From: Firmicutes bacterium CAG:238
GTDB taxonomy: Bacteria; Bacillota; Clostridia; Christensenellales; CAG-917
Direction of reading: 5' to 3'
Length of the DNA stretch: 43,428 nt
NCBI GenBank assembly: GCA_963659105.1
Contig: CAVKTQ010000003.1
Span: 13,228 to 56,655, forward strand
The position numbers and the translations under genes are program-made. Each line of letters starts with the position of its first letter. Within the stretch, counting starts at the first letter, position 1. Positions 1,132 through 33,891 of this stretch are shown in pieces. The notes beneath the pieces are model-generated. The model made no database searches. It saw only the letters and a list, made by a program, of their open reading frames with translations, and was not told the origin of the DNA.

Positions 1132-1665
1132 GCAAAAATCGTCGCTAAGGCAACGACAACACACAAGTGTGCGCATTGCCGAGAGCCTTGCTTGATTTAT
1201 TGCTCTGCTAACCGCGCAAGCCCTCTTTGCTCTCCCGAACAAGACGGACAAAGAATCCAGCCACAATTCCGCACGAGTGCTTGCTTGGTGAAGCGTGCTT
1301 TGCACACATATGGTGAATTTGAATTATCCATATGTCATTCAGAGCGTAGCGTAGGAATCCAGCCGTAAGCGCATTTCGCTCCGCTTGATTCTCACGGTCA
1401 CTGTGTTCCCTCAGAATGACGAGCGCAAAGAATTTGTGCTATCCGTTCAAGCAAGGACAAAAATCCTGCCGCAATTTCGCAAAATTATCTGCTTGGTGGG
1501 TGCGTGCTTTGCACGCAGTTGCGGAATATTTTAATATTCCATAACCCAAACGACGTTTGGATATCATCGTGCAGAATTGCACGATATCATCACAAAGTGA
1601 TATCATCGCCATAAGCGATATCATTCACTGCGTGAGGAAGGGGGAAAGCTTAAATTGAAGTTATA
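1132..1665. repeat. Mosaic repeat locus R1: L element (1132-1330), foldback F (1334-1420), 5'-truncated L (1421-1540), hairpin/linker array (1546-1635), T-like tail
   Basis: It starts immediately after the stop codon at 1129-1131. Long stretches align with 31810-32590, with the reverse complement of 19713-19922, and with 12463-12610. The ORFs called here are in different frames in different copies, so the region is non-coding. Confidence 0.9.
1334..1420. mobile_element. Foldback (MITE-like) element F, copy 1 (short variant)
   Basis: The termini GTCATTCAGAG ... CTCAGAATGAC are inverted repeats. It aligns with 19611-19709 apart from an internal deletion of about 12 bp. Confidence 0.75.
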
Positions 1666-5879: not shown

Positions 5880-5892
5880 GGATGCGATTTTT
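5866..5892 (+). terminator. Intrinsic terminator of the aminotransferase gene
   Basis: Stem AAAATCGCATC / GATGCGATTTT with the TAG stop codon in the loop, followed by a T-run. Confidence 0.75.
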
Positions 5893-5893
5893 C

Positions 5894-6090
5894 AATTAAT
5901 AATTAACAATTAATAATTAATAATTGAGGGTGGGACACGCACACCCGATTGTGCCTGCGGCACAGTGATATTATCTTGCGACAGTGAAATGCACGCTGTG
6001 CGTGCGTGAAATTGTCCTTTCGGACAGTGAAATTTGCACTTCGTGCAAATGAAATTGCACCGTCGGTGCAGTTTTGGAATATTAAAATTC
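5894..6090. repeat. Mosaic repeat locus R2: T module (5894-5947), hairpin/linker array (5950-6070), degenerate hp palindrome
   Basis: An AATTAATAATTAA-rich stretch is followed by GAGGGTGGGACACGCACACCC. Then come the hairpins TGTGCCtgcGGCACA, GCACGCtgtGCGTGC, TGTCCtttcGGACA, TTGCACttcGTGCAA and TGCACCgtcGGTGCA, joined by GTGAAAT/GTGATAT linkers. Confidence 0.9.
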
Positions 6091-6188
6091 TATTTTTCCT
6101 ATTTTTGAAAACATAAAAATTTGCATATTTTTTTGCATATTACCCATACCGCCGTCATAGAGTTTAGCAAACAGAATCGGAGGAGTTT

Positions 6189-9640: not shown

Positions 9641-9822
9641 GAGAGTGCGACAAACTTAATTAAATTGGAAAAAGACCTATTACCTTGGTAACAGGTGCAT
9701 TTTTCGCAAAGCATCGCTTTTTCCAATTTGAGCATGTGGTTTGTCGCAAAATCAGCGAGATGCACTTGTTATATATTGCTTTCTTTGTATCGGGTGTGTT
9801 TCGTTCCCGATACTTTTTTTGG
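9641..9822 (+). promoter_or_regulatory. Structured 5' leader (or small RNA) ending in an intrinsic terminator just before the RBS
   Basis: Nested helices: TGCGACAAAC (9646-9655) pairs with GTTTGTCGCA (9739-9748); TTGGAAAAAG (9665-9674) pairs with CTTTTTCCAA (9717-9726); inner hairpin at 9675-9696. Then the terminator GTATCGGG...CCCGATAC plus T7 (9787-9820), immediately followed by GGAGGAG and the ATG at 9835. Confidence 0.5.
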
Positions 9823-9834
9823 AGGAGAATAAAA

Positions 9835-12167: not shown

Positions 12168-12350
12168 TTACCAGTCCTCACGGTGATTGATTTTGACATC
12201 GTCGTAATACTCAAAGTACTTTTGTTTGTATCTCTGAGTTTCGTTGCGGTGGCGTTTGAGTTCCTCTCTCGCCGCCTTTTCGGCTTCGTTTTTCGGTTCT
12301 GCACCCTTTACTTCGTCAATAGGGGTGAGATTGTATTTCAAATAATCCAT
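12168..12350 (-). CDS. Small hypothetical protein (60 aa, charged)
   Basis: The ORF reads MDYLKYNLTPIDEVKG...YFEYYDDVKINHREDW. Composition is protein-like and it is followed by the shared terminator, but I see no clear RBS upstream. Confidence 0.4.
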   Translation of the reverse strand: MDYLKYNLTPIDEVKGAEPKNEAEKAAREELKRHRNETQRYKQKYFEYYDDVKINHREDW

Positions 12351-12362
12351 ATTAATTTGTAA

Positions 12363-12835
12363 GTGATATTGCACTTATGGTGCAGTGATATTGTCTTACG
12401 ACAGCGATATTGTTGCTTCGCAACGGTGATATTGCGACTTTGTCGCAGTTGCGGAATATTCAAATTTTCCGCTTGCGCACGAAGTGCGCTTCACAAAGCA
12501 GATAATTTGGCGAAACTGTGGCTTGAATCTTTATCCGTGCCTGAACTGATAGCGCAAATTCTCTGCGCGGTTAGTGATTGCGAGAACAAGTGCGGCTTTT
12601 GACAATCGCCCCAAAAGTTTACGTTTCTATTTAGGGGATTCCCACGCTTCGCTCTGAATGACAAAGTGGGCGATTGACGTTGCCACAACGTAGTTTGAGC
12701 AATGGCTCGCCGCTTTGCGGCTCGTGTTCCGTCTGCGAATGAGCAGATACCGTTTATAAGTAGGCTTCGAATTAGTTTTCGTTTCGGGTGTGGGCAGAGC
12801 CCACCCAAAATTATTCATTATTAATTATTAATTAA
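12363..12835. repeat. Mosaic repeat locus R3: hairpin/linker array plus hp (12363-12462), partial inverted L (12463-12610), half F element (12634-12662), T module (12784-12835)
   Basis: GTGATAT-linked hairpins TGCACTtatGGTGCA, TGTCttacGACA, GTTGCttcGCAAC and TGCGACtttGTCGCA. These are followed by GCGGAATATTCAAATTTTCCGC and by GCGCACgaaGTGCGC...AAGCAGATAATTTGGCGAAACTGTGGC, which match the other L copies. Confidence 0.9.
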
Positions 12836-13218: not shown

Positions 13219-14400
13219 TCACGACATTTTTCTGTCCACGTCGATGACGAAAAAGTATTTTACGGGGTCGTTTGCAAACTCTTGTTTCATAGCGTTTTTC
13301 ACGTCGTTGAGGCAAATTTTGCTGTCGTAGGGGATTACGACGTCGAAAATCATATTTGTGTGCGTTTGTCCGCTGACGATGCGAAAATCGTGCAACGAAA
13401 GCCCCTCGTCGAGGTTGGCAAGCGCGTTTTGAGCGCGAAGTTTGAGTTCGGCAAGTTTCTCGTTTTTGGTATCCACAGGGTCCATATGTATGGTGATTCT
13501 CACATGCATTTCGTTCCAAAAGTCGTGTTCGATGTTGTCTATGACGTCGTGGCTCTTGGTTATTTCAACGTCCTGCGGCACTTCGACGTGCGCAACGACA
13601 AAGCAATGATTCTCGCCGTAACTGTGCACGACAAGATCGTGAACGCCTATAACGCCGTCGTAGGAAAGTATTTTCGCCGTGATTTTGTCAACGAGTTCCT
13701 TGGGCGGCTTTTCGCCGAGAATAGGGGATATGGATTCCTTCACGAGAAGTATGCTCGACACGATGATAAACGCCGACACCGCGATACCCATTATGCCGTC
13801 CACGCTCACTTTGGGGCTGATTTTGTCGCCCGCAACGTCGATGACTATCGTTGATATTAAGACGGCGACGGTGGCGAGCACGTCGTTTCTGCTGTCCGCC
13901 GCAGAGGCTTTGAGCGCACCGCTGTTTATCGCTTTCGAGAAGTCGAGATATATGAGCATTTGCACGAGTTTCATTGCGATTGCCGCGCCCAAAACGACGT
14001 AGGTGTATACGCTTACGCTCACCGCTTCGGGCGTAATACACTTTTCGATGGACGATTTCAAAAGCAGTATTCCGATAAAAAGCACCGTGACCGACACGAG
14101 CAGAGAAGTTATGTATTCGTACCTTGCGTGACCGAACGGGTGATCCTTGTCGGGCGGCGTGGCGGAAAGTTTGAATCCCACGAGCGTGACGACGCTGCTT
14201 CCTGCGTCCGACAAGTTGTTGATTGCGTCCGCAACGATTGTTATGCTGTTGCCGATGATACCGACGATAAGTTTGAACACGCAAAGCAAGGCGTTGGATA
14301 TTATGCCGAACACGCCGGCGACAAGCCCGTAGCGGAAGCGCACTTTCGGGTCTTTGGTGTTTTGATAATCTTTTATAAGCAGTTTGCGAATGAATTTCAT
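13219..14400 (-). CDS. Cation diffusion facilitator (CDF) family metal efflux transporter
   Basis: 393 aa. A six-TM N-terminal domain contains ADAINNLSDAGSS and HPFGHARYE motifs. The cytoplasmic C-terminal domain contains HDLVVHSYG. Confidence 0.88.
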   Translation of the reverse strand: MKFIRKLLIKDYQNTKDPKVRFRYGLVAGVFGIISNALLCVFKLIVGIIGNSITIVADAINNLSDAGSSVVTLVGFKLSATPPDKDHPFGHARYEYITSLLVSVTVLFIGILLLKSSIEKCITPEAVSVSVYTYVVLGAAIAMKLVQMLIYLDFSKAINSGALKASAADSRNDVLATVAVLISTIVIDVAGDKISPKVSVDGIMGIAVSAFIIVSSILLVKESISPILGEKPPKELVDKITAKILSYDGVIGVHDLVVHSYGENHCFVVAHVEVPQDVEITKSHDVIDNIEHDFWNEMHVRITIHMDPVDTKNEKLAELKLRAQNALANLDEGLSLHDFRIVSGQTHTNMIFDVVIPYDSKICLNDVKNAMKQEFANDPVKYFFVIDVDRKMS

Positions 14401-14438
14401 ATGTTATATTCTCTCTCGGTTGTTATTACTAAAATATT

Positions 14439-14470
14439 CCCCGAAAATCTCGATGTCAAGATTTTCGGGG
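14439..14470 (-). terminator. Intrinsic terminator downstream of potD
   Basis: 12-bp stem CCCCGAAAATCT / AGATTTTCGGGG, followed on the minus strand by a T-rich tract. Confidence 0.75.
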
Positions 14471-14484
14471 AAGTATGTGTTTTT

Positions 14485-14545
14485 ATATTAATTAAGATAT
14501 TTTGGGGTGTGGGGTGAAACCCCGCCCGAAATTATTGATTATTAA
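14485..14545. repeat. T module copy overlapping the end of potD
   Basis: GGGGTGTGGGGTGAAACCCCGCCCGAA followed by ATTATTGATTATTAA. The AT-rich part encodes the last codons (LNNQ) and the stop codon of potD. Confidence 0.7.
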
Positions 14546-15998
14546 GTTTCTTTGTCTTTCTAGGTCGTACTTTAATTGCTTGCACTATGAAGTACACGCC
14601 GACGACAACAGCGATTGCGCCGACTATCGCCAAAAGGACGTACCAAAGATTTACGTCCACGCCGTCGCCCGATTTCGCTCTTTGCCACATATTGACCACG
14701 ACGTCGTTGCGCTTTCCGAAGTCGCGCATAACGCCCAAAGTGTCGTTGATGACGGGGTAGCGCCCCTCGTCGGCAAAGTATTCTTCGACGTCGTATTCGC
14801 AATCTTCAAGGTATGCGCAAACGTCCTCGTCGGCTTGAAGCAACGCCTTGTTGGTTGCCGAAGTGTAGCCGATTGCAACCGAGTTGCGCACGGAACTTAA
14901 CGGATTGCACATATAGTCGATAAACATCATTGCGGCGAGTTTGTTGTTGACGGACGTCGGTATGCACCAGCCGTCGTACCAAATGTTGCTCGCCACGTCG
15001 GGGACGTAGTAGCCGAGTTGATAGGCGCCCGTTTCCTCGTCGTAGCCGCCTTCCTCGATTGCCCAAAGCGCGTCGCCGCTCCACGCAAAGTCGGCGTAGA
15101 CGATTTCGTTTATCATATCGTCCTTGCCGAAATCAACCTCGTATCCCGAGATATGCTCGCGTTGCTCTGTAAGCACTTTTTCCGCTGCCGCAACCATTTC
15201 GTCGTCGGTGCAGTTGATGAGTTCTTGCACGGAATAGGACTTATATTTTTCGGGGAGGAGGTTGTATTCGTACATATAAAAGATTGCGGCGGCGTAGGTG
15301 TCGCGCACGCTGTCTTTCATAAGGATTTTGTTTTCGAGTTTCTCGTTTTTCTGAACGTTCCAAAGCACGCCCCAGCCGTATTGTTCGAGTTCTTCGAGGC
15401 TGACGACGGACGTGTTGTAGAGTATGCCGAGCGTGCCGCACATATAAGGAACCATATATTCTGTCATGTCATGGCTTGCGCCGTCTTGCGACTTTACGTC
15501 GTTGAACATGCTCGATATCACGTCCATAATATCGGGGTCGATGTTGCCCCAACCCGACCTTAAACTGCTCATATTGTCAAGTGAAATACCGTATTTGGTC
15601 AAATCATCCTGAATTTCGGCTTTTATGTCGTTGTGGTTGAGAAGGCAGTTTGCCGTGAGCAATTTTTCGATTGCGTATTCGCTCGGGCAAATCAAATCGA
15701 CGTTTGCGTCGCCTTTGAGCACCTTTGTCATCATCGTTTCGTTGGTGTCGAAAGTGGTGTAGGTAATAGAAAGCGCGCGCCCCGTTTTTTCTTTGTAGTA
15801 GTCGGCAAATTCGTCGAGCAAAGTCTTGCCCGTTTCCTCGTCGATTTCTGCGTCGATATAGTCTTCCCAGTTGTAGATGACAAGTTTGTCGCCGCCGCTT
15901 TCGCCCTTTGCGCCGTTGTTGCAGGCGGTGAGGACGGGAAGCAAAGTCGCACTCAAAACGAGGACGAGTACAATCAAGGTTGCAATGCGTTTTTTCAT
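14532..15998 (-). CDS. potD: Spermidine/putrescine ABC transporter substrate-binding lipoprotein with an extra C-terminal TM helix
   Basis: ATG 15998 follows AAGGAGG. Lipobox LLPVLTAC. PotD-like body (LVIYNWEDYID...). The C-terminus LWYVLLAIVGAIAVVVGVYFIVQAI plus a basic tail looks like a membrane anchor. The 700-aa ORF extension overlaps potC and I reject it. Confidence 0.85.
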   Translation of the reverse strand: MKKRIATLIVLVLVLSATLLPVLTACNNGAKGESGGDKLVIYNWEDYIDAEIDEETGKTLLDEFADYYKEKTGRALSITYTTFDTNETMMTKVLKGDANVDLICPSEYAIEKLLTANCLLNHNDIKAEIQDDLTKYGISLDNMSSLRSGWGNIDPDIMDVISSMFNDVKSQDGASHDMTEYMVPYMCGTLGILYNTSVVSLEELEQYGWGVLWNVQKNEKLENKILMKDSVRDTYAAAIFYMYEYNLLPEKYKSYSVQELINCTDDEMVAAAEKVLTEQREHISGYEVDFGKDDMINEIVYADFAWSGDALWAIEEGGYDEETGAYQLGYYVPDVASNIWYDGWCIPTSVNNKLAAMMFIDYMCNPLSSVRNSVAIGYTSATNKALLQADEDVCAYLEDCEYDVEEYFADEGRYPVINDTLGVMRDFGKRNDVVVNMWQRAKSGDGVDVNLWYVLLAIVGAIAVVVGVYFIVQAIKVRPRKTKKLNNQ

Positions 15999-16822
15999 AC
16001 GTTCGCCTCCTTGTTCTTTTTCTTCTCGCGCGAGATTTTGACGAGGTTTATCGAAAGCACGCCGGCAAGAACGATTACGAATATAATCGAGAATATCGCA
16101 TACCAGAACGGTTCGAGACCTTGCACGCGCGCGTCCGAATAAATGTAGGTGGACAGGGTGTTGATGCCCGTTGCCGCGCCCTTGTTGATTTGAGTGATGA
16201 TGAAGTCGTCCATAGACATTATGAACGCCATGACGAATCCGCTGACGATGCCCGGCGTTATGATGGGAATCATCACCTTGACCAGAGCCTTGAACGGATT
16301 TGCGCCGAGGTCGAGAGCCGCTTCGTAAATGTTGGGGTCCATAGATTCGAGTTTGGGAAGCACGCTCAAAACGACGTAGGGGGTGCAGAACGCTATGTGC
16401 GCGATGATGAGGCGCAAGTATCCTTCGGGAAAAGCGAACGTGATGAAGAACACCATCATAGAAACCGCCATAACGATTTCGCTGTTGATGATGGGGAATT
16501 GGTTGACGTTTTCCACGATACGTCTTGCTCGCTTGCCGAGGTTGAAGATGCCGATAGAGGCGAACGTACCCATAATCGTCGCCACGACGGAAGATATGCT
16601 CGCGATGATAAACGTGTTTGCGATCGCGCTCCAAAGGTCGGGCGATTTGTCCGATTTGAATATCGAAACGTACGCCTCGAAACTGAATCCGTTGTCGAAA
16701 TTGAAGTTGGAACTGTTGGAAAACGAGTACACGATGAGAAGGACTATCGGCGCGTACAGTATCGCGAGGATAATCAAAAGATAGAACTTTTCAAAAAAGC
16801 CTATAATCTTTTCTTTTACCAT
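15995..16822 (-). CDS. potC: Spermidine/putrescine ABC transporter permease
   Basis: 275 aa, six-TM permease with an EAA-like loop (YEAALDLGANPFKAL). Its ends overlap potD and potB by 4 and 7 nt. Confidence 0.88.
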   Translation of the reverse strand: MVKEKIIGFFEKFYLLIILAILYAPIVLLIVYSFSNSSNFNFDNGFSFEAYVSIFKSDKSPDLWSAIANTFIIASISSVVATIMGTFASIGIFNLGKRARRIVENVNQFPIINSEIVMAVSMMVFFITFAFPEGYLRLIIAHIAFCTPYVVLSVLPKLESMDPNIYEAALDLGANPFKALVKVMIPIITPGIVSGFVMAFIMSMDDFIITQINKGAATGINTLSTYIYSDARVQGLEPFWYAIFSIIFVIVLAGVLSINLVKISREKKKNKEANV

Positions 16823-17616
16823 AGCGACCTCCTCACAGCGTTGCTGTTGCGATTGAATTTGTTCATAACGAAGTTGGATATAAGCACGAACACGAGCATA
16901 ACGAGGCTCATTATCGAGCCCACGCCGTACATGCCTTGCTCGAAACTCAGTTGTATCGAATCGCCGAAAAGGAATATCTTTCCGTTCGAGAGCAGTTGCG
17001 AGATCGCATACGTCGAAATCGTGGGGATAAACACCATCGTGATTCCGCTGAATATGCCGCTCATAGAGAGGGGAAGCGTGGTTTTCAAAAAGACGGTCGC
17101 TTTGTCCGCGCCCAAGTCCTGCGCCGCTTCGATATAACTCTTGTCAATGCCAGAAATGGTGGTGTGCAAGGGAAGAATCATAAACGGCAGATAATTGTAC
17201 ACCATACCGAAAAGCACCGTACCCATACCCAGTTCCACGCCGAGCGCAATGAAGATAGCCTTCGTCGCGAGCGTGCGGATAAGGAAGTTTACGCCCATGG
17301 GAATGACGTACAAAAGCACGAGTATGCGTCCGCTCGACATCTTCGAGAGGAAGTAGGCGACGGGATAGCCTATAACGAGGCACAATACCGTCGTTATCAC
17401 GCCCACGAGCAGTGAATTGCCAAGCACCACGAGGCTTGATTTCGACGTAAAGAATGTCTTGAAGTTTTCAAGAGTCAGATTGTTGTCGCTGTCGAGAAAC
17501 GCGTTTACGAGGATAAGCACGAGCGGCGTCACCACGAACAGCAACAAGAAAAGGATGTAGGGGATCGAAAACACCTTTTTCGTCAATCTGAATTTTTTGC
17601 GAGAGGTGTTTTTCAC
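16816..17616 (-). CDS. potB: Spermidine/putrescine ABC transporter permease
   Basis: 266 aa permease with the EAA loop IEAAQDLGADKATVF. Translationally coupled to potA (ATGA overlap). Confidence 0.88.
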   Translation of the reverse strand: MKNTSRKKFRLTKKVFSIPYILFLLLFVVTPLVLILVNAFLDSDNNLTLENFKTFFTSKSSLVVLGNSLLVGVITTVLCLVIGYPVAYFLSKMSSGRILVLLYVIPMGVNFLIRTLATKAIFIALGVELGMGTVLFGMVYNYLPFMILPLHTTISGIDKSYIEAAQDLGADKATVFLKTTLPLSMSGIFSGITMVFIPTISTYAISQLLSNGKIFLFGDSIQLSFEQGMYGVGSIMSLVMLVFVLISNFVMNKFNRNSNAVRRSLW

Positions 17617-19238
17617 TCTTCATCCTCCTTTTCGTCGCTCGATTGCTCGGCCTCTTGCTGTTCGGCTTCGATTATGATTTCCTCCACCGCGTCGAATTTT
17701 TCGGGTTCTGTGAGGCGCGCCTCTTCGATTGCTTCCTGCTCCTCTTTTGTGAGGGTTTCGTCCTTGACGACGGTTTCAACGACCTGTTCTTCCTCGTCGC
17801 GTTGTTCGATAACGATCTTTTCGGGCGCGATCTTGATGCCTACGCGGTCGCCTTTGAGCCAATCGTCGTCGGTGTCGGCAAAGAAGATGTAGTGGTCGTC
17901 CGTCGAGAGTATGGCTTGATAGTAACTGCCCTTGTATATGGACGAAAGCACGGTTGCGCCGATCTGTCCGTCCTCTTCGTCGTCGGTGATTTCCACGTCG
18001 TCGAAGTCGACGAACACCTTGACGGGCGTTTCGACGGGAAGGTCGGTTTTGCACTCGAAGTCCGTTCCGCAAATCTCGACGAGGTTTTCGCCCGTGATGT
18101 AGGTGTCGATTTCGTTGATGATGCGAGTCTTGTGCATGATGTGAAGGTCAAACGGCTTGATGTAGATTCCCACCGTTTCGCCCACGTCGTAAGTGTCGGT
18201 GTCGTGCGCCACGATTTCGTTGCCGTTGGCAAGCAGGGTGATTTGATAGTGGTCGCCCTTGAACACGGACGAGATGACCTCCGCCGTGAGGATGGTGCGC
18301 TTGTCGTCTACCTTTTTGATTTTCACGTCCTCGGGACGAATGATAACGTCGATGGGTTCGTTGTGCTTGAATCCCTTGTCCACGCACTCGAAAACGGTGT
18401 CGCAAAACTCGACTTTGCAGTCTTCGAGCATAGTTCCCGAAAGAATGGTGCTTTCGCCGATGAAGTCCGCGACGAACGCGTTTGCAGGCTCGTCGTACAC
18501 CTTTTCGGGGGAAGCGATTTGCTGAATTTCGCCAAGACGCATAACCACGATTTTGTCGGACATCGTGAGCGCTTCTTCCTGATCGTGCGTGACGTAAATG
18601 AAGGTTATGCCCAGTCTTTTGTGCATATCCATAAGTTCGAGTTGCATATCCTTGCGCATTTTGAGGTCGAGTGCGCCCAAAGGCTCGTCGAGGAGCAGCA
18701 CTTCGGGTTCGTTGACGAGCGCGCGTGCGATTGCGACGCGTTGTTGTTGTCCGCCGCTGAGCGAGGATACGTTTCTGTGTCCGTAGTCTTCGAGGTCAAC
18801 CATTTTGAGAGCGTTGTTCACTTTCTCTTTGATTTCCGCTTTGGTGTACTTTCTGAAAAGTTGGATGGTTTCGCCTTTCTTGTTGACTTTTGTGCCGTTG
18901 GGAATAACTTTGAGTTTAAGCCCGAACGCGATGTTGTTAAAGACGTTCAAATGCGGGAAAAGCGCGTATTTTTGGAATACGGTATTTACGGGGCGAAGGT
19001 GGGGCGGAGTGTCCGTGATGTCCTTGCCGTTGAAAATGATTTTTCCGCTCGTGGGCATTTCAAAACCGGCAATCATACGAAGGGTCGTAGTTTTGCCGCA
19101 GCCGCTCGGACCGAGCAAAGTGACAAATTCGCCGCGCTTAATCGTAAGGCTGGCGTTTTTGACCACTTGTTTGCCGTCGTACTCTTTGTAGACGTTGCGA
19201 AGTTCGATGATGTTGTCAACAGGTGTTTTGTTTGTCAT
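17613..19238 (-). CDS. potA: Spermidine/putrescine ABC transporter ATPase with a duplicated C-terminal regulatory (TOBE-like) domain and an acidic tail
   Basis: ATG 19238 (MTNKTPVDNIIELRNV) with AAGGGG upstream. Walker A GPSGCGKTT, signature LSGGQQQRVAIARAL, Walker B LLLDEP. At 541 aa it is roughly 170 aa longer than a typical PotA. Confidence 0.9.
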   Translation of the reverse strand: MTNKTPVDNIIELRNVYKEYDGKQVVKNASLTIKRGEFVTLLGPSGCGKTTTLRMIAGFEMPTSGKIIFNGKDITDTPPHLRPVNTVFQKYALFPHLNVFNNIAFGLKLKVIPNGTKVNKKGETIQLFRKYTKAEIKEKVNNALKMVDLEDYGHRNVSSLSGGQQQRVAIARALVNEPEVLLLDEPLGALDLKMRKDMQLELMDMHKRLGITFIYVTHDQEEALTMSDKIVVMRLGEIQQIASPEKVYDEPANAFVADFIGESTILSGTMLEDCKVEFCDTVFECVDKGFKHNEPIDVIIRPEDVKIKKVDDKRTILTAEVISSVFKGDHYQITLLANGNEIVAHDTDTYDVGETVGIYIKPFDLHIMHKTRIINEIDTYITGENLVEICGTDFECKTDLPVETPVKVFVDFDDVEITDDEEDGQIGATVLSSIYKGSYYQAILSTDDHYIFFADTDDDWLKGDRVGIKIAPEKIVIEQRDEEEQVVETVVKDETLTKEEQEAIEEARLTEPEKFDAVEEIIIEAEQQEAEQSSDEKEDEE

Positions 19239-19317
19239 AGGTAGACCCCTTGTAATTGCACCTACGGTGCAGTTATATTGCGGCAATGCCGCAGTGATAT
19301 CGTTGCCGTGCAACGGT

Positions 19318-19581
19318 GATATCCTCGCAATGCTCGGGCGATATCCTCGCTATGTTCGGGCGATATCCTCGCTATGCTCGGGCGATATCCTCGCTATGTT
19401 CGGGCGATATCCTCGCTATGCTCGGGCGATATCCTCGCTATGTTCGGGCGATATCCTCGCTATGCTCGGGCGATATCCTCGCTATGTTCGGGCGATATCC
19501 TCGCTATGCTCGGGCGATATCCTCGCTATGTTCGGGCGATATCCTCGCTATGCTCGGGCGATATCCTCGCAGTGCGAGGAT
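19318..19581. repeat. Tandem repeat: 12 units of 22 bp (GATATCCTCGCtatgYTCGGGC) with C/T alternation, giving a 44-bp super-period
   Basis: Units start at 19318, 19340, 19362 ... 19560. Units 2-11 are identical apart from the alternating C/T. The last unit is a perfect hairpin, CCTCGCagtGCGAGG. Confidence 0.97.
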
Positions 19582-19610
19582 TGCGGATTATTCAAATCTG
19601 TTTTCCGCTT

Positions 19611-19709
19611 GTCATTCAGAGGAGCAACAGAGTTGCGACGTAGGAATCAAGGCGAAGCCGCATTTCGCTACGCTGGATTCTCACGGTCACTTTGTTCCCT
19701 CAGAATGAC
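19611..19709. mobile_element. Foldback (MITE-like) element F, copy 2 (full length, 99 bp)
   Basis: GTCATTCAGAGG...CCCTCAGAATGAC. It is near-identical to the reverse complement of 32136-32235. Confidence 0.8.
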
Positions 19710-19967
19710 ACATGGAAGATTTAAATCTTCCGCTCAACTGCGTGCGAAGCACGCTCTCACCAAACAGATAATCTTGCGAAACTGCGGCTTGATTATTTGT
19801 CCGTCTTGTTTTGATAGCAAAGATTCTCTGTGCGGTAGAAGCGCAATAAATCGAGTAAGGTTCTCGGCGATACGCAAATCTGCGTGTTGCCGTTGCCTCA
19901 GCGACGATTTTTGCGCAGTACGATTTCATCACGAAGTGATATCATCGCCAAAGGCGATATCATTTTA

Positions 19968-20501
19968 TTAAAATGTCGGTGGGGAAGCAACCCACAATAC
20001 GACCGCCTTTTCGTTCGTGCGATTTTCAAGACGGTGCGGCTTCGAGGATGTGAAGTAAAACACTTCGCCCTTTTTCACGCAGTAAGCCGCCTGCCCGATG
20101 TGAAGCCATATTCTGCCCGATATGACGTATCCGAATTCCTCGCCCTCGTGAGGCACGTCCTCTTCGAGATTGGTGTGCGGCTCTATGGTCACTCGTATGG
20201 GTTCCATCTCGTTCTTCTGCGCGTTGGGGACAAGCCATTCGATTTTGTGCGTGTCCGCAACCTTTTCGATAAACTCCGCTTCGGTGAAAACGACCTTTTC
20301 CTCCTTTTCGTCCTTGAAGAAGTCCGCAAACGTCGTTCCGAGCGCGTTGAGGATATCCTCCAAAGTTGTGATAGAGGGGGAAGTGAGTTCGTTTTCGAGT
20401 TGCGAAATGTAGCCTTTTGTCAATTCGCATCTGTCGGCGAGTTCCTCTTGCGTGAGGTTGTTTTGAAGCCTCAGTCTTTTGATTTTAGTGCCAAGTTCCA
20501 T
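19968..20501 (-). CDS. XRE-family HTH plus cupin-domain transcriptional regulator (PuuR-like)
   Basis: ATG 20501 follows GAGGGA. N-terminal HTH (IKRLRLQNNLTQEELADRCELTKGYISQLE). C-terminal cupin (HEGEEFGYVISGRIWLHIG). It sits upstream of potABCD on the same strand. Confidence 0.85.
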   Translation of the reverse strand: MELGTKIKRLRLQNNLTQEELADRCELTKGYISQLENELTSPSITTLEDILNALGTTFADFFKDEKEEKVVFTEAEFIEKVADTHKIEWLVPNAQKNEMEPIRVTIEPHTNLEEDVPHEGEEFGYVISGRIWLHIGQAAYCVKKGEVFYFTSSKPHRLENRTNEKAVVLWVASPPTF

Positions 20502-20544
20502 AAGTTCCCTCAAAAGCGAAAACGGTACACGAAGCGTGCGTTCC

Positions 20545-20642
20545 GTTTAGGCTGACTAAACTTTCGGCTTAGTTTAGGCAAAATCGACCGCGAGTTTAGC
20601 AAGTTTTGCATTTTTTAACAAAAAGTTTAGCAAAACTAAACT
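20545..20642. promoter_or_regulatory. Cluster of GTTTAG/CTAAAC operator-like sites upstream of the HTH-cupin gene
   Basis: Inverted repeats GTTTAG-n5-CTAAAC (20545-20561) and AGTTTAG-n5-CTAAACT (20624-20642), plus half-sites AGTTTAGG (20571) and AGTTTAGC (20593). Confidence 0.55.
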
Positions 20643-20965
20643 TGTCTGTCAAAAACGATTATATAGATTATAAAAGTCCGTGTCAATTATTTTGATATAT
20701 TTTTTCGACAAATTTTGCGCCGTACCGTTTGCGAAAACAAAATATGAAATATGTTTCATATTTTTTGACAACGCGCGCGTACAAATATAGAATATTAGCG
20801 CAACGAAAAATCGAGGCGAAATATGTTGAAACAATGGGTGACAATCAAAATCCCGCCGTGTTGTTTTTCCACGCAATGGGCGTGACGGGAAACAGCAGCG
20901 AGAGGGTGTCAGAGGTTTTTGCAAACGAAATCGTAATATAAACATAGGATTAACGCAAAATGCAC

Positions 20966-24077: not shown

Positions 24078-24442
24078 GGGGGTGTTCTGGATTCGACATT
24101 CGGTCTGATGCGGGATAAGCACGTCGTAGGCTCGGCTACGTAAAAACGGAACGTTAAAATTAAACGCAAAAAACAATCAAAAGAGCTCCAATATGGAGTT
24201 CGCTCTTGCTGCATAATTTAAGTCGGCACGTCGACGCGAGGTTTTCTGTTCCCTCGTCAATCGGCGTCAGAAAAACAGACAACGCAATCTGATTTCTCGG
24301 TAGGGTTGTTGTCAATACGAGATCATCGAGGCAAGGTTTGTAGGTGAACCGAACTTAGAAAAATTTTAATCACCGACTAAACGTGTAGAAAGTGCCGAGT
24401 ACGGTCGGGTGGACCGGGGTTCAAATCCCCGCACTTCCACCA
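24078..24442 (+). ncRNA. ssrA: tmRNA (SsrA), 365 nt
   Basis: 5' GGGGGTGTTCTGGATTCGAC and 3' GGACCGGGGTTCAAATCCCCGCACTTCCACCA. The acceptor stem includes a G3:U pair. The tag reading frame is GCA AAA AAC ... GCT CTT GCT GCA TAA, giving AKNNQKSSNMEFALAA. Confidence 0.95.
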
Positions 24443-26982: not shown

Positions 26983-26984
26983 AA

Positions 26985-27060
26985 AGGTCGCTAGGGGTGC
27001 TGTAAAGCTGAGATGATACCCTCAAACTTGTGAGATAATCCTCGCGTAAGGAAGCAACAA
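26985..27060 (+). promoter_or_regulatory. TPP (THI-box) riboswitch aptamer
   Basis: CTAGGGGTGC...GCTGAGA...ACCC...ACTTGTGAGATAATCCTCGCGTAAGGAAG follows the conserved THI element pattern (GGGGTGC / CTGAGA / ACCC / GATAAT...GCGTAGGGAA). The downstream gene is ThiT-like. Confidence 0.8.
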
Positions 27061-27121
27061 AACGAAAGTTTAAGACATTGCCTTTTCTTTTCAAGTTCCC
27101 CATAGCAGGAGGACTTTTTTT

Positions 27122-28297
27122 ATGGATATCGAAACCTTATCCGACAAACTGCAATTCGTCGCGCTTTATCTTGCCGTCGCGCTCACAGCGGCGTTTATCG
27201 TCGTTGGTTTGCTCGTTCGGTTTTTCAAAAAGGAAAAATTCAACGACTTCAAAAAGTATGCCGTGGGCATAACGACGGGCTTTGCCGTGACTATGGTCGT
27301 GGTGTTTGCCTACGTCAAATTCCAGTGCAACATCGACGATATGCAGGCAAAACTCTTTTACCCCATACTCGCAACGCTCATAACCGTAGTCGCAGGGGCG
27401 ATTGCGATGCTCGTAAGTTCGCTTTTCAGCGACAAGGCGGTCAAGATTTCCTTTATCGTCACCGCCGTTTTGACGCTTGGTTGCTTTATAGCCACAATGG
27501 TGCTTATGGCGCAATACTACGGCGACATCGCAGAGTATTATCCCAAAGCGAATCTCGTCGGAATGATCGTGTCCGCCGTCGTGTTTATGGCGATTATGGT
27601 TGCGATGTGGTTTGTGGGCGACAAACGCAAGATGAGCGACACTCGCTCTATCGTGTACGGCGCAATCTCGATTGCGCTCTCGTTTGCCCTTTCCTATGCG
27701 AAACTTTTCAAACTTCCGCAGGGTGGTTCCGTGACGTTTGCAAGCCTCCTTCCGCTCATGATTTACTGCTGTATGTTCGGCACGAGAAGGGGACTTATCG
27801 TATGCGCGATTTACGGCGTTTTGCAAGCGTTGCAAGATCCGTACATCATTCACCCGATGCAATTTTTGCTCGACTATCCTCTCGCTTTCGGGCTTATCGG
27901 CGTCAGCGGAATATTTATGGAAAAGGGTGTGTTCAAGGACAAAAAAGTGGTTGCGTTCTTGCTCGGCGGCGTGCTTGCCGTTGTGTTGAGATATGCTTGC
28001 CACGTTTGCTCGGGCGTATTTGCGTTTGCAGACTACGCAGACCTTGACAAGTACGACACGGCAATCGCGTACAGCATGGCGTACAACTCGTTTGCGTTTG
28101 TGGATATGCTCATTGCGCTCGTCGCAGGAAGCACGTTGTTTGCTTCGAAATCGTTTTCCGCTCTCATGCAAAAGTCGAGCGACGTGAACAATGCGGCGGA
28201 AGTTAAAACCGAGCAACCGACAGACGACGAAGAAGATTTGGACGAGATAGACAAGCAAATTATTGAAAATCAAGAGAACAAAAACAGCAATCAATAA
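27122..28297 (+). CDS. ThiT-like thiamine transporter (ECF S-component-like C-terminal half) fused to an extra N-terminal multi-TM domain
   Basis: 391 aa. Residues ~180-345 (IVYGAISIALSFALS...GGSVTFASLLPLMIYCCMFGTRRG...YPLAFGLIG) resemble ThiT. The N-terminal ~170 aa add about 5 TM helices, and the C-terminal tail is acidic. Confidence 0.7.
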   Translation: MDIETLSDKLQFVALYLAVALTAAFIVVGLLVRFFKKEKFNDFKKYAVGITTGFAVTMVVVFAYVKFQCNIDDMQAKLFYPILATLITVVAGAIAMLVSSLFSDKAVKISFIVTAVLTLGCFIATMVLMAQYYGDIAEYYPKANLVGMIVSAVVFMAIMVAMWFVGDKRKMSDTRSIVYGAISIALSFALSYAKLFKLPQGGSVTFASLLPLMIYCCMFGTRRGLIVCAIYGVLQALQDPYIIHPMQFLLDYPLAFGLIGVSGIFMEKGVFKDKKVVAFLLGGVLAVVLRYACHVCSGVFAFADYADLDKYDTAIAYSMAYNSFAFVDMLIALVAGSTLFASKSFSALMQKSSDVNNAAEVKTEQPTDDEEDLDEIDKQIIENQENKNSNQ

Positions 28298-28313
28298 TAG
28301 CAGACGGGAAAGA

Positions 28314-28880
28314 GTGCCTGCGGCACAATGATATTGCACTTCGTGCAGTTATATTGTGTCTGCGACACAGTAAGATTCTCGCTCTGCGAGAGTGATATTG
28401 CGGCGTTGCCGCAGTTGCGGAAGATTCAAATTTTCCATATGTCATTCTGAGGGAATGAAGTGACGGCGAGAATCAAGCGAAGCGAAATGCGGCTGTCGCC
28501 TTGATTGCCACGTTACAACGATATTGCTCCTCCACAGTGATTGTGCGCATTTAGCGCAAGCCTACGGCTTTAATTTGCACTTGTGCAAATACAATCACTC
28601 CAAAAATATCGTCGTTCGCAAACCCTTGCAAGCAAGTTTCCTCACTCGACATTGACGCAATGACGATAGGGGGGGACACCCACACTCGAACAGATATTCA
28701 AATATTCCTCAACCCAAACGAAGTTTGGATATCATCGTGCGATATGCACGATATCATCACAACGTGATATCATCGCCATAGGCGATATCATTTAGGTGAG
28801 GCTGGGGAAGCTTCAAATAAAATGCATCGAGGGCGGGACACCCGCGCCCGAATAAAACACCCGCACCGAATAAAACAAAT
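28314..28880. repeat. Mosaic repeat locus R5: hairpin/linker array plus hp (28314-28436), F (28441-28532), unique multi-hairpin segment (28533-28690), hp plus array (28691-28791), T-type module (28796-28880)
   Basis: Hairpins GTGCCtgcGGCAC, TGCACttcGTGCA, TGTGTCtgcGACACA, TCTCGCtctGCGAGA and TGCGGCgttGCCGCA joined by GTGATAT-like linkers. The second array is near-identical to 32443-32520 and 1546-1620. Confidence 0.9.
28441..28532. mobile_element. Foldback element F, copy 3 (inverted, distal terminus degenerate)
   Basis: GTCATTCTGAGGGAATGAAGTGAC... aligns with 32136-32228. The final CTGAATGAC terminus is missing. Confidence 0.7.
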
Positions 28881-29033: not shown

Positions 29034-29636
29034 TCATCGTTTTATGTATCTGAACACGAATACGCCGCCTCGTTTGACGTTGATGTGAATCTTTCCGCCG
29101 AGCGATACGTTGCTTAGTCCGCGCGATGAGCAAGAGGCGAGAACAAGTTCGTCAAGAGGGTATTCGAGATTCTTCGAATCGCTCACAAGCGCGCTTTCGC
29201 CGTAGGGAAGGATGGATATGGTTTCGCCCTTTTGAGTGGGCATATCGAACTCGCCCTCGACGTAATAGATGTCCAAACCGTCTTCCTCGGCTTTTGCACT
29301 CATACCGAGAGAGTGGGCAAGGCGCATAATGGAAAGGTTGCAAAGGACGTGGTCCACTCTGCCGCCAGTTATGCCGTAAAACACGAGAGAGTCGGCGTTA
29401 TACGTTTCTTTTGCGTAGTACACGGCAAGTTCGCCGTCGCTTGCGTCCTTGTGAGGATTGTGCTCGACGAGGGGAATGTCGATACCCTCGGGTTTTTCGA
29501 GAGAATCGAAATCGCCGAGTATGACGTCGGGCGTCACGGTGCATACGTTGAAACCGCCGTCGCAACATACGACTTTGTCGCCTTTGATTTTGCGCTTTAT
29601 TTCGCTTCCGCAATTGAGAACAATGGATACTTGCAT
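29034..29636 (-). CDS. thiN: Thiamine pyrophosphokinase
   Basis: 200 aa starting at ATG 29636. Contains ILGDFDS and GITGGRVDH motifs typical of TPK. The 319-aa ORF extension lacks support. Confidence 0.82.
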   Translation of the reverse strand: MQVSIVLNCGSEIKRKIKGDKVVCCDGGFNVCTVTPDVILGDFDSLEKPEGIDIPLVEHNPHKDASDGELAVYYAKETYNADSLVFYGITGGRVDHVLCNLSIMRLAHSLGMSAKAEEDGLDIYYVEGEFDMPTQKGETISILPYGESALVSDSKNLEYPLDELVLASCSSRGLSNVSLGGKIHINVKRGGVFVFRYIKR

Positions 29637-29765
29637 AAAAACAGTGTAGCACGGCGAGAGAATTTTTGCAATTTTTGTCGCAGTATTTTTCAAAACTGCT
29701 ATTGAAAATGTATGTTTTATTGTATATAATACACTTATAAAACCTTGTTTTTGAGGGATGCGCAT

Positions 29766-30692
29766 ATGAAAGAGTTCAAACTCAAAAGTTTTGACAACAC
29801 CGAGATTTACTGCAGGCTTTGGGATGACGCGGACAATCCAAAAGGCGTCATTCAACTCGTGCACGGTATGAGCGAGTACGCAGGTCGCTACGACGAGTTT
29901 GCTCGCTACCTCAACACGAGAGGCTACATAGTGTTCGGCGACGACCACCGCGCGCACGGACTCACCGAAACAGACCAAAATCGAGGCAAGCATCCCGGCA
30001 ATATTTTCAAAAAGACGTTAAAAGACGAGTTGTTCTTCCGCGAGTGGCTCAAGTCGCAATACAATCTGCCCGTGTTCCTTATGGGACACAGCTACGGCAG
30101 TTTCCTCTCGCAGGCGTTTGCGCAAGAGGGTACGGACGTAAAGGCAATCGCGCTCATAGGCTCGGGGCATATGAGAGATTTGTTCAATCTCGGCAAAATC
30201 GTCGTCGCTCCGATATTCCTTGTAGCGAGAAACTGGCGTCCGCGCGTCGTCAACTTTGTGAGCGACAACTTCCAAAAATTCAAGGGCGACGAGGGCAAAT
30301 TGCAGTGGGCAAACAGCGTCCGCGCAAGGCGCGAGGACGTGCTTGCAGATCCGCTCGCACACCAAAATATGTCCGTCGGCTTCGACTTCTATATGATGAA
30401 GGAAACTTCCAAACTGTACGGCAAAAAAGCGCAGGCAAAACTCAATCCGGCAACCGCAATAGGCATCTTTTCGGGCGACGCGGACTCCGTCGGACAAATG
30501 GGCAAAGGCGTCAAAAAACTCGACAAGATGTACAGACAAAACGGTATCAAAACCGAATTGCATCTCTACCACGGCGCAAGACACGAGGTGTTTTACGATT
30601 GGTGCGGCGAGCAAATGCAAAAAGACGTCGCCGACTTTTTCGACAAATTCATCATCTACGAGCAAACCAGCATAGACGATTTGTGTAAATAA
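29766..30692 (+). CDS. Alpha/beta hydrolase (lysophospholipase / monoacylglycerol-lipase-like)
   Basis: ATG 29766 follows GAGGGA. It has the HGMSEYAGRY motif and the nucleophile elbow GHSYG. Confidence 0.8.
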   Translation: MKEFKLKSFDNTEIYCRLWDDADNPKGVIQLVHGMSEYAGRYDEFARYLNTRGYIVFGDDHRAHGLTETDQNRGKHPGNIFKKTLKDELFFREWLKSQYNLPVFLMGHSYGSFLSQAFAQEGTDVKAIALIGSGHMRDLFNLGKIVVAPIFLVARNWRPRVVNFVSDNFQKFKGDEGKLQWANSVRARREDVLADPLAHQNMSVGFDFYMMKETSKLYGKKAQAKLNPATAIGIFSGDADSVGQMGKGVKKLDKMYRQNGIKTELHLYHGARHEVFYDWCGEQMQKDVADFFDKFIIYEQTSIDDLCK

Positions 30693-31768: not shown

Positions 31769-32590
31769 TGCCTTAGGCACAATGAAATGCACGCAAGCGT
31801 GCGTGAAATTGCGCAAAAATCATCGCATAGGCAACGGCAACACGCAAGTGTGCGTATCGCCGAGAGCCTTGCTCGATTTATTGCGCAACTACCGCGCAGA
31901 GAATCTTTGCTATCAAAATAAGACGGATAAACAATCAAGCCGCAGTTTCGCAAGATTATCTGCTTGGTGAAGCGCACTTCGTGCGCAGTTGAGCGGAAGA
32001 TTTGAATATTCCATAACCCAAACGAAGTTTGGATATCATCGTGCAATATGCACGATATCATCACAGCGTGATATCATCGCCGCAGGCGATATCATTGCAC
32101 AGAGCGCAATAGCGGATAAATTGAATAATCCATATGTCATTCTGAGGGAACGGAGTTACCGTGAGAATCAAGCTTAGCGCAATGCGGTTGTCGCCTTGAT
32201 TCCTACGTCGCAACGATGTTGCTTCTCTGAATGACAAGCGCAAAAATCATCGCATTAGCAACGGCAACACGCAAGTTTGCGTATCGCCGAGAGCCGTGCT
32301 CTATTTATTGCGCTACTAACCGCGCAGAGAATTTGCGCTATCAGTTCAAGCACAAATAAAACCTCACGCCACAATTTCGCCAAATTATCTGCTTGGTGAA
32401 GCGCACTTCGTGCGCAGGATGAGGATTCAAATATTCCGCAACCCAAACGAAGTTTGGATATCATCGTGCAATATGCACGATATCATCACAACGTGATATC
32501 ACCGCCATAGGCGATATCATTTATGTGAGGATGGCGAATCTTCAAATAAAATACATCGAGGGCGGAACACCCGCACCCGAATAAATTATT
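31769..32590. repeat. Mosaic repeat locus R6 (most complete): mini-array, L (31810-32012), array (32018-32110), hp, F (32136-32235), L (32236-32440), array (32443-32520), T-type module (32521-32590)
   Basis: Two tandem L copies are visibly similar over about 200 nt. The arrays carry ATATCAT linkers. The module order largely parallels R1. Confidence 0.92.
32136..32235. mobile_element. Foldback element F, copy 4 (full length, inverted relative to copies 1 and 2)
   Basis: GTCATTCTGAGGGAACGG...GCTTCTCTGAATGAC, flanked by TCC-ATAT on the left and AAGCGCAAAAATC (start of L) on the right. Confidence 0.8.
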
Positions 32591-33733: not shown

Positions 33734-33781
33734 AAAATAGGCGGAATAGGGCATAGTTTTTGAGATAAAAACTATGGAAGA

Positions 33782-33891
33782 AACCGCAAAAAAACCGCAA
33801 AAAAACCGCAAAGAAACCGCAAAAAAACCGCAAAGAAACCGCAAAGAAACCGCAAAGAAACCGCAAAGAAACCGCAAAGAAACCGCAAAAA
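33782..33891. repeat. Tandem repeat: 10 units of 11 bp (AACCGCAAA[G/A]A)
   Basis: Units start at 33782, 33793 ... 33881. A-tracts recur every 11 bp. A 41-codon ORF (33774-33899) runs through the repeat. Confidence 0.97.

Follow-up and report, generated by a model that had tools for sequence, protein, structure and literature searches.

Gut-1 hairpin arrays in gut Clostridia: a probable module of a dispersed, strain-variable intergenic repeat

What is preserved in a DNA repeat whose hairpins keep their self-complementarity while their sequence varies? The question is raised by a 43,428-nt stretch of the genome of Firmicutes bacterium CAG:238 (assembly GCA_963659105.1, contig CAVKTQ010000003.1, positions 13,228 to 56,655; hereafter the window), in which short, variable hairpins alternate with a 7-nt linker. 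These arrays belong to the Gut-1 family (Rfam RF01706), with one full member and five sub-threshold relatives. They are multi-copy and intergenic, and strains differ by the gain and loss of units and of entire arrays; their stems change by paired compensatory substitutions while the linker, or tag, is kept. It is probable, at about 60% by our estimate, that Gut-1 in this and many related gut Clostridia is the hairpin-array module of a dispersed, modular, strain-variable intergenic repeat that resembles the REP/BIME/REPIN or BOX elements. The array at which the question arose, and the palindrome that closes it, are:

28314-28413, plus strand: reported array of five perfect hairpins (stems GTGCC, TGCAC, TGTGTC, TCTCGC and TGCGGC) with four 7-nt linkers (ATGATAT, GTTATAT, GTAAGAT and GTGATAT).
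28414-28436, no strand: junction palindrome 'J', GTTGCGGAAGATTCAAATTTTCC, which closes plus-orientation arrays and stands before minus-orientation arrays.

The reported array starts 17 nt past the stop codon of a ThiT-like gene (27122-28297) and reads GTGCC-TGC-GGCAC / ATGATAT / TGCAC-TTC-GTGCA / GTTATAT / TGTGTC-TGC-GACACA / GTAAGAT / TCTCGC-TCT-GCGAGA / GTGATAT / TGCGGC-GTT-GCCGCA. Ten arrays, defined as a 7-nt linker (GTGAWAT or ATGATAT) with a short perfect hairpin, lie in the 43 kb of the window. All are intergenic and occupy six intergenic regions, intergenic DNA making up 19% of the window. An initial annotation of the same DNA had located the pattern at nine places, and inspection of the sequence found linker and hairpins at each; two parts lie beyond its list, a truncated minus-strand array (19918-19963) and a tandem expansion (19318-19570). 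It had also described a frequent period of 22 nt, which is indeed the commonest spacing of units, and at least ten different stems, which the plus-orientation arrays of the window do contain. Stems are conserved only in a minus-orientation subfamily (repeat family D8); the near-identical copies described there exist, and are more exactly five copies of one subfamily, 88-96% identical. The statement that the cores are almost always perfect hairpins was correct as to a real excess of hairpins and needs a minor correction as to individual units, some of which are imperfect, such as 5972-5983 (TATCTTGCGACA) and the 11 units of the expansion.

Could so short a pattern arise by chance or from low-complexity sequence? 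The shortness of the linker is the sole point in favour of such an origin. The linker motif RTGAWAT occurs 55 times in the window, against 28.5 +/- 4.5 times in shuffles, and perfect hairpins number 407, against 220 +/- 18 in the chance control. Folding z-scores for 28310-28440 range from -2.9 to -4.6; whichever strand was folded, and whether it was treated as RNA or DNA, none of 200 shuffles was as stable. Together with the linker-only genome scan, the viral control and the covariation described below, these excesses refute a chance origin, whose probability is practically nil.

At 5982-6060, the Rfam covariance model for Gut-1 reaches 66.4 bits, which exceeds the gathering score of 50. Five further arrays of the window are sub-threshold, the reported one at 42.6 bits (28326-28403, plus strand) and the others at 41.6, 34.9, 32.1 and 23.1 bits. 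The features that mark the family are all present, namely a score of at least 50 bits (in one copy), consecutive hairpins with a GUGAAAU-type linker and compensatory changes in the stems. Furthermore, the model scored above the gathering threshold in 17 of 20 related hairpin loci tested from the matches listed. Gut-1 is already catalogued, so the arrays are not new; the window contributes additional members and leads to a different view of the family.

Weinberg et al. (2010, PMC2864571) described Gut-1 from 43 human-gut metagenome fragments as three hairpins, with no sequenced organism and no proposed function, and rated it 'certainly' RNA and 'probably not' cis-regulatory. Rfam gives RF01706 the type 'Gene; sRNA' (small RNA). 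Literature searches on RF01706, on the linker sequence and on intergenic palindromes of Clostridia returned the 2010 paper and general REP papers only, and no later paper on Gut-1 was found. The present arrays depart from the published description in several respects. They contain 2-16 units rather than three hairpins, and their linkers include the variants GTGATAT, ATGATAT, GTGAATT and ATGAAAT beside the GUGAAAU type. Rather than a single sRNA gene, they form facing pairs that are present in many copies per genome and vary between strains. The published family came from the human gut and had no host, whereas the present loci fall in metagenome-assembled genomes (MAGs) of Clostridia, Oscillospiraceae, Acutalibacteraceae and Christensenellaceae from humans and ruminants. 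Finally, the loop signatures favour the strand opposite to that of the Rfam model. The facing second array is visible in the flanks of rows in Weinberg's own alignment (PMC2864571).

If the stems are free to vary, which property is under constraint? A type I element with seven hairpins was aligned from 14 species. Standard pairs occupied 96.4% of cells, and 18 of the 36 pairs had both-sided changes, in 62 cells. None of 500 shuffles reached the observed value of any of five measures, and sliding the partners by 1-3 columns left at most 8 both-sided cells. The covariation between arms that had been proposed for the window therefore stands against shuffled controls; that the arms change together around a constant linker is borne out both by this alignment and by the linker-only core test described below. 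As the arms change in concert around an unchanging linker, the sensible reading is that a single strand folds, be it RNA or single-stranded DNA (ssDNA), as the initial annotation had suggested.

Its second suggestion, a phased array of double-stranded sites, fares less well. Here, the 7-bp linkers, spaced by about two helical turns, would be sites for a nucleoid protein, for a regulator, or for a transposase at the two ends of a miniature transposon. The 22-bp period agrees with such sites, as does the arrangement of the linkers, direct within an array and inverted between facing arrays like some transposon ends. The perfect complementarity of the variable cores, the compensatory changes and the strand-specific loop sequences would all be left unexplained, and no transposase gene lies between or beside the arrays. 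We regard binding to duplex DNA as a very improbable explanation.

The signals conflict as to which strand folds, and in which nucleic acid. Folded as RNA, the reported stretch is far more stable on the Rfam strand than on the other (-51.8 versus -37.8 kcal/mol); as DNA, the two strands are equal. In the Rfam-strand RNA, each stem is lengthened by an A-U and a U.G pair taken from the flanking linkers. Loop sequences point the other way. Among 196 distinct units in the matches listed, the closing pair is C-G in 166, GNA triloops number 60 on the strand opposite the Rfam model versus 5 on the Rfam strand, and GNRA tetraloops number 21 versus 0; there are no UNCG loops. C-GNA-G and C-GNRA-G are classic extra-stable mini-hairpins of DNA and RNA. 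Single mismatches on the Rfam strand, counted as A.C versus G.T, gave 15 versus 7 and 9 versus 7, which are small and contradictory numbers; as A.C mismatches are at least as frequent as G.T, there is no wobble signature for that strand. We conclude that a single-stranded fold is under constraint, with conflicting signals for RNA versus DNA and for strand, and that the strand assignment of Gut-1 in Rfam deserves a second look.

How widely does the design occur, and do hairpins emerge when only the linker is specified? One genome from each of 185,579 species was scanned for three GTGAWAT linkers 12-16 nt apart, the cores being left unconstrained, and at least 119 loci were recovered. Among the matches listed, perfect stems of at least 5 bp were present in 157 of 344 cores, versus 1.75 expected from shuffled cores. 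The distribution was bimodal, with 57 of the listed loci consisting entirely of hairpins and 40 containing none. The listed hairpin loci come almost entirely from human or ruminant gut MAGs labelled Clostridia, Eubacteriales, Oscillospiraceae, Acutalibacteraceae, Christensenellaceae or Ruminococcaceae; the listed non-hairpin loci belong mostly to unrelated phyla, with a few Clostridia-type labels, and are taken to be chance matches. Overall, 146 distinct stems were counted in 230 units of the matches listed. A scan of viral contigs with identical linkers yielded 120 matches with a chance-like stem distribution, 5-bp stems occurring in 8 of 380 cores and none being longer. A phage origin of the arrays is rejected, as the viral contigs gave chance matches and simple tandem repeats and no true array.

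Some loci from the survey (cited by L numbers) stand apart. Hairpin arrays of the Gut-1 type occur in contigs binned as Bacteroidaceae (L002, four units) and Akkermansiaceae (L005, two units), which reflects either mis-binning or spread outside Clostridia. At L022 (5037-5461, a Flavobacteriia MAG), another array of hairpin-like units has a 9-nt linker, CGCCTTACT / CGCCTTAGT, unrelated in sequence to Gut-1, and is possibly an analogous design in another phylum. At L004 (3281-3645), hairpin units with a second linker type (AATGATGC / ATGATGC) lie beside a Gut-1 array.

Each unit of an array comprises the 7-nt tag (GTGAWAT) and a GC-rich hairpin of 4-7 bp closed by C-G, and units follow head-to-tail, one about every 22 nt. 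The typical arrangement in other genomes is a run of 2-6 units, a gap of 12-83 nt and then a second array in the opposite orientation; the linker varies by lineage (GTGAAAT, GTGATAT, GTGAATT or ATGAAAT). Among the matches listed, neighbouring arrays within 500 nt formed 26 convergent pairs, no divergent pairs and 5 pairs of the same orientation. Gut-1 matches that pass the Rfam threshold occur as facing pairs 20-60 nt apart, and at L010, L020 and L078 both members exceed it. The centre between facing arrays is short and partly palindromic, and one array of a pair is often enclosed by a long-range helix of 8-11 bp, TATTCGCC/GGCGAATA in one type and TAAATCCAC/GTGGATTTA in another. With regard to the hallmarks of a MITE, namely terminal inverted repeats, a target-site duplication and sites both filled and empty, the linkers at the outer edges are in inverted orientation (AGTKATAT ... 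ATATCACT) and both kinds of site occur, but no target-site duplication was recognised. Pairing between the linkers of facing arrays, as predicted by RNAalifold, is not claimed here, as the columns are invariant, a single compensatory case was found (L079) and L088 and L078 are counter-examples.

Does the position of the arrays relative to genes point to a role in transcripts? Among the matches listed, orientation to the flanking genes is mixed (17, 10, 9 and 5 across four orientation classes). Neighbour clustering found no gene family that recurs beside the arrays in 67 of the listed loci, generic ABC ATPases apart. No transposase, RAYT or cas-like gene is present among the window genes, and none recurs near the arrays of those 67 loci. 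Three of the five plus-orientation arrays of the window start 17-71 nt past a co-directional stop codon, and two lie directly upstream of minus-strand start codons. The type I element is a composite of about 165 nt that is always preceded by a longer hairpin, often a terminator and in three cases the terminator of a tRNA gene; it tends to lie behind a co-directional gene, as in about 9 of 14 loci. Flanks of this kind are also seen in the alignment of Weinberg et al. Several type I elements come directly after a tRNA-gene terminator, to which they are joined by CAGTTA (L020, L065, L079 and BAAZ01025322, the last from Weinberg's alignment).

These positions bear on the proposal that the arrays are cis-acting RNA at transcript ends, where stacked hairpins would block 3' exonucleases or aid termination and the element would serve as a two-sided insulator between genes. 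A transcript arriving from either side would first cross a GUGAWAU-type array, and the inward orientation of the facing arrays (26 convergent to none divergent in the listed matches) agrees with this, as do the three window arrays that begin shortly past co-directional stops, the placement of type I elements and the better RNA fold of the Rfam strand. Many copies, however, sit just past a canonical terminator or a tRNA gene, where little read-through is expected, and two window arrays are found directly upstream of start codons on the other strand. Most terminal hairpins have no U-tract, G.U does not exceed A.C on the Rfam strand (7 versus 15 and 7 versus 9) and the GNA and GNRA loops are on the other strand. 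A role at transcript ends is compatible with a repeat element; as an explanation of the arrays in its own right, we consider it unlikely.

Between strains, the arrays behave much as a repeat would. Positions 13326-20816 of the window match L013, a locus from a Hadza-gut MAG with the label 'uncultured Clostridia bacterium', at about 95% identity. Over 19239-19967, the two share the first three units apart from a single loop substitution. The region 19318-19570 consists of 11.5 copies of a degenerate 22-nt unit (GATATCCTCGCTATGYTCGGGC), of which L013 has a single copy; a comparison of array length between strains, proposed in the initial annotation, thus shows 11 copies against one. C and T alternate between the 22-nt units, and therefore the duplicated block was probably 44 nt. 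Also absent from L013 are a module termed B with a second J (about 130 nt) and a 49-nt stretch that contains the minus array 19918-19963.

A second comparison concerns the Gut-1 array at 5950-6070, which is present in the window, L248 and L249 and absent from L121-L123 and L247, whose SpoIVA proteins are 99% identical. The latter four have a different repeat mosaic and different upstream genes in its place, and in two sister species, whose SpoIVA is 85% identical, the 126-nt spacer upstream of spoIVA contains nothing but a plain terminator. Most of the differences that separate the window from L248 lie within hairpins and take the form of paired changes.

The neighbourhood of spoIVA provides further observations. 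The terminator hairpin of the aminotransferase gene (5866-5893) differs from that of L248 by two compensated pairs and the loop (CGCATC..GATGCG versus CGCGC..GCGCG), with identical flanks; hairpins thus look like hotspots of concerted change. Over 5880-6188 and its counterparts in L121, L123 and L248, three different genes stand upstream of spoIVA (for an aspartate aminotransferase, a trypsin-like peptidase and an M28 peptidase), at 99% SpoIVA identity. The breakpoints fall in the repeat mosaic, and these differences reflect either real rearrangement at repeats or mis-joined MAG contigs. Exact-protein look-ups with the window SpoIVA, its 100% match P0001 and an HTH-cupin protein gave no match; the look-up with YhbY returned one contig, which ends at repeats.

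Copy number leaves its mark on assemblies as well. Among the matches listed, single MAGs supply several array loci, and 24 of 80 arrays have a contig end no more than 300 nt away where 5.6 would be expected, a pattern that multi-copy repeats produce in short-read assemblies.

Is Gut-1, then, a free-standing, trans-acting sRNA gene, as typed in Rfam? Its strong covariation would suit such a gene, as would the rating of 'certainly' RNA and 'probably not' cis-regulatory (PMC2864571). A gene of this kind is hard to reconcile with about ten copies per 43 kb, with hairpin numbers from 2 to 16, with threshold-passing matches that are facing pairs, with the lack of a conserved promoter, with the absence of the best Gut-1 copy from strains of the same species and with the contig-end excess. 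It is the reading least compatible with the genomic behaviour of the arrays, and we give it a very low probability.

The interpretation favoured here remains that of a dispersed, modular, strain-variable intergenic repeat with Gut-1 as its hairpin-array module. In such a repeat, the feature that is kept would be how one strand (ssDNA or RNA) folds, the constant tag being presented between helices, where a protein would recognise it together with the hairpin, much as a RAYT transposase reads GTAG and the REP hairpin. Unit number would change by replication slippage on the 22-nt period, and perfect palindromes may be helped by template switching or conversion within hairpins. Any role for the host would probably be limited to structured transcript ends or insulators.

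Several points weigh against this interpretation. No transposase or cognate enzyme was found in the window or near the arrays in 67 of the listed loci, and neither a target-site duplication nor a clean insertion boundary was established. The stems within one genome are far more diverse than those of classical REP families. Some elements (L021, L075, L086 and L050) hold their position from species to species while showing compensatory changes, a conservation that also fits a host-level function, and the placement of type I elements after a co-directional stop or terminator (about 9 of 14) hints at an RNA role.

A bolder version would make Gut-1 the first described REP-like system of Firmicutes. 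Its functional form would be folded ssDNA, or RNA of the strand opposite to Rfam's, with extra-stable C-GNA-G and C-GNRA-G mini-hairpins; a putative enzyme would read the 7-nt tag and nick, copy or multiply units; and new palindromes would arise by snap-back or template switching rather than by slow compensatory evolution. This version is speculative, and we think it improbable.

The repeat interpretation alters what is to be asked of Gut-1, which Rfam has listed since 2010 as an orphan 'sRNA' lacking both host and function. It is now placed in named gut Clostridia MAGs as a many-copy, strain-variable composite repeat with conflicting strand signals, and the first question shifts from an sRNA target to mobility, single-strand recognition or effects at transcript ends. 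The repeats break short-read assemblies of abundant gut bacteria and coincide with rearranged gene neighbourhoods, and unit number in the arrays could serve as a strain marker.

Which known system do the arrays resemble most? REP elements are defined by a GTAG or CGTC tag at the foot of a palindrome (PMC3733652), and REP, BIME and REPIN elements with their RAYT transposases form the comparison family (PMC3733652, PMC6006769). The likeness lies in short extragenic hairpins that have a constant tag at the base, present in high copy and in inverted doublets, and extends to clusters of variable size, mosaics with other motifs and differences between strains. The Gut-1 arrays share the extragenic position, the high copy number and the inverted doublets. 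They differ in that the tag is a 7-nt GTGAWAT or ATGATAT rather than GTAG or CGTC, in that the palindrome varies between copies whereas a REP palindrome is conserved within one genome, and in that units are tandem and direct within an array whereas REP units alternate. The hosts, being Firmicutes, are a further difference. Moreover, the cognate RAYT (Y1/HUH) of REP elements has no counterpart among the window genes, nor one that recurs in the 67 listed loci. By the definitions given in PMC3733652 and PMC6006769, the arrays fall outside the REP family: the tag is a different one, the palindromes are not conserved, and no RAYT was seen among the window genes or near the arrays of the 67 listed loci. 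The initial annotation had allowed that the arrays might be fragments of a known palindromic family such as REP with a RAYT; the family is a known one, Gut-1, and it is not REP.

Other systems share single aspects of the design. The BOX elements of Streptococcus pneumoniae are modular intergenic repeats of a Firmicute, with a middle module in variable tandem number, a stable predicted fold and no known transposase. The present arrays are likewise modular, intergenic and variable in tandem number, in Firmicutes; BOX modules are conserved in sequence and are not variable mini-hairpins with a constant linker. Integron attC sites are read as folded ssDNA of one strand, and are single imperfect palindromes of 60-140 nt that flank cassettes near an integrase. 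Conservation of structure over sequence is common to attC and the arrays, and the cassette and integrase setting of attC was not found here. The sponge RNAs CsrB and RsmZ are products of single-copy, promoter-driven genes and display a GGA motif mostly in loops. They too present a short repeated motif by a series of hairpins in variable number, but the constant motif of Gut-1 lies between hairpins, and at many loci.

The regular alternation of constant and variable segments recalls CRISPR, and the initial annotation had called the arrays the inverse of CRISPR logic. CRISPR arrays have repeats of at least 20 nt, unique spacers and cas genes, whereas here the constant part is 7 nt and the core is 12-16 nt and self-complementary. 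There is no leader, no cas genes were found near the arrays, and the units covary and are not foreign-derived. The comparison serves as a picture only, with no sign of unit acquisition and no recurrent cas-like or cognate gene near the arrays.

The remaining nine arrays of the window are:

1546-1624, minus strand: four-hairpin subfamily copy, 100 nt upstream of the radical-SAM gene at 1724; Rfam Gut-1 32.1 bits.
5950-6070, plus strand: six-hairpin array between the aspartate aminotransferase and spoIVA genes; the copy that passes the Rfam Gut-1 threshold.
12363-12447, plus strand: four-unit array, 12 nt upstream of the start of a minus-strand small gene (12168-12350); Rfam Gut-1 41.6 bits.
19257-19579, plus strand: composite array of three perfect units, an 11-fold expansion of the degenerate 22-nt unit (19318-19570) and a final perfect hairpin.
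19918-19963, minus strand: truncated array, CAC-GAA-GTG and CGCC-AAA-GGCG; Rfam Gut-1 23.1 bits; inside the 49-nt stretch absent from L013.
28714-28791, minus strand: facing partner of the reported array, CCAAAC-GAA-GTTTGG, CGTGC-GATAT-GCACG, CAC-AAC-GTG and CGCC-ATA-GGCG, each followed by ATATCAT (repeat families D6, D8 and D10).
31769-31809, plus strand: short two-hairpin array, 18 nt past the stop of an S58 peptidase gene.
32018-32095, minus strand: four-hairpin subfamily copy (D8, D10); Rfam Gut-1 34.9 bits.
32443-32520, minus strand: four-hairpin subfamily copy, 92 nt upstream of the radical-SAM gene at 32612.

The composite array at 19257-19579 adjoins a potA-like gene on the minus strand and lies directly upstream of it. 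About 300 nt of other repeat modules separate the plus array 28314-28413 from its facing partner. The companion modules of the window are:

1521-1545, 6071-6099, 12448-12470, 19580-19608, 19714-19735, 28689-28713, 31990-32017 and 32418-32442 (approximate): further copies of J (repeat families D10, D11 and D20).
19609-19712, and also about 1332-1413, 28437-28540 and 32134-32237: module B, about 100 nt, with inverted ends TGTCATTCAGAGG...CCCTCAGAATGACA (D12, D17 and D20).
31811-31989, with copies or partial copies at about 1130-1310, 1420-1517 and 32238-32417 and, in reverse, at 12471-12640 and 19736-19917: module 'C', about 180 nt (D9, D13-D15 and D18).

The J, B and C modules occur in several orders and orientations, and within the window they swell the centre between facing arrays. 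BLAST-detectable repeats make up about 32% of the intergenic DNA of the window, a figure outside which the divergent plus-orientation arrays fall. Module B at 19609-19712 is absent from the corresponding site of L013; its inverted ends are TGTCATTCWGAGG / CCTCWGAATGACA, a J palindrome is always adjacent, and L034 and L121-L123 contain comparable pieces. In appearance, module B resembles a miniature transposable element.

Scans for promoter and terminator consensus sequences gave weak matches at best. In three minus arrays (28764-28791, 32068-32095 and 32493-32520), the plus strand has weak sigma-70-like matches, GTGATA and TATCAT separated by 16 nt, which agree at 9 of 12 positions. The unit period of the arrays equals the spacing of promoter hexamers, and two of the arrays with such matches lie about 90 nt upstream of plus-strand genes. 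When the linker and J were compared by eye with binding-site consensus sequences (DnaA box, cre, Fur box, CodY box, dif and attC core sites), none fitted.

The window encodes SpoIVA, Der, a PotABCD-like transporter, TldD/PmbA-like proteins, a ThiT-like protein and transfer-messenger RNA (tmRNA), a predicted gene content that points to a spore-forming member of Clostridia. The tmRNA gene is at 24078-24442 (plus strand) and has the tag peptide AKNNQKSSNMEFALAA. An element resembling a thiamine pyrophosphate (TPP) riboswitch (26983-27069, plus strand) scores 49.7 bits, just below the Rfam cut-off of 54.3, and lies directly upstream of the gene for a 391-residue protein whose C-terminal half matches the thiamine transporter ThiT; a thiamine diphosphokinase gene (29034-29993, minus strand) is nearby. 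Two further repeats were noted, a ten-copy tandem repeat of an 11-nt unit (AAGAAACCGCA) at 33778-33889, in the spacer past a radical-SAM gene, and 69-nt (23-residue) repeats at 10630-11900, within the gene for a 788-residue leucine-rich-repeat surface protein (9685-12051).

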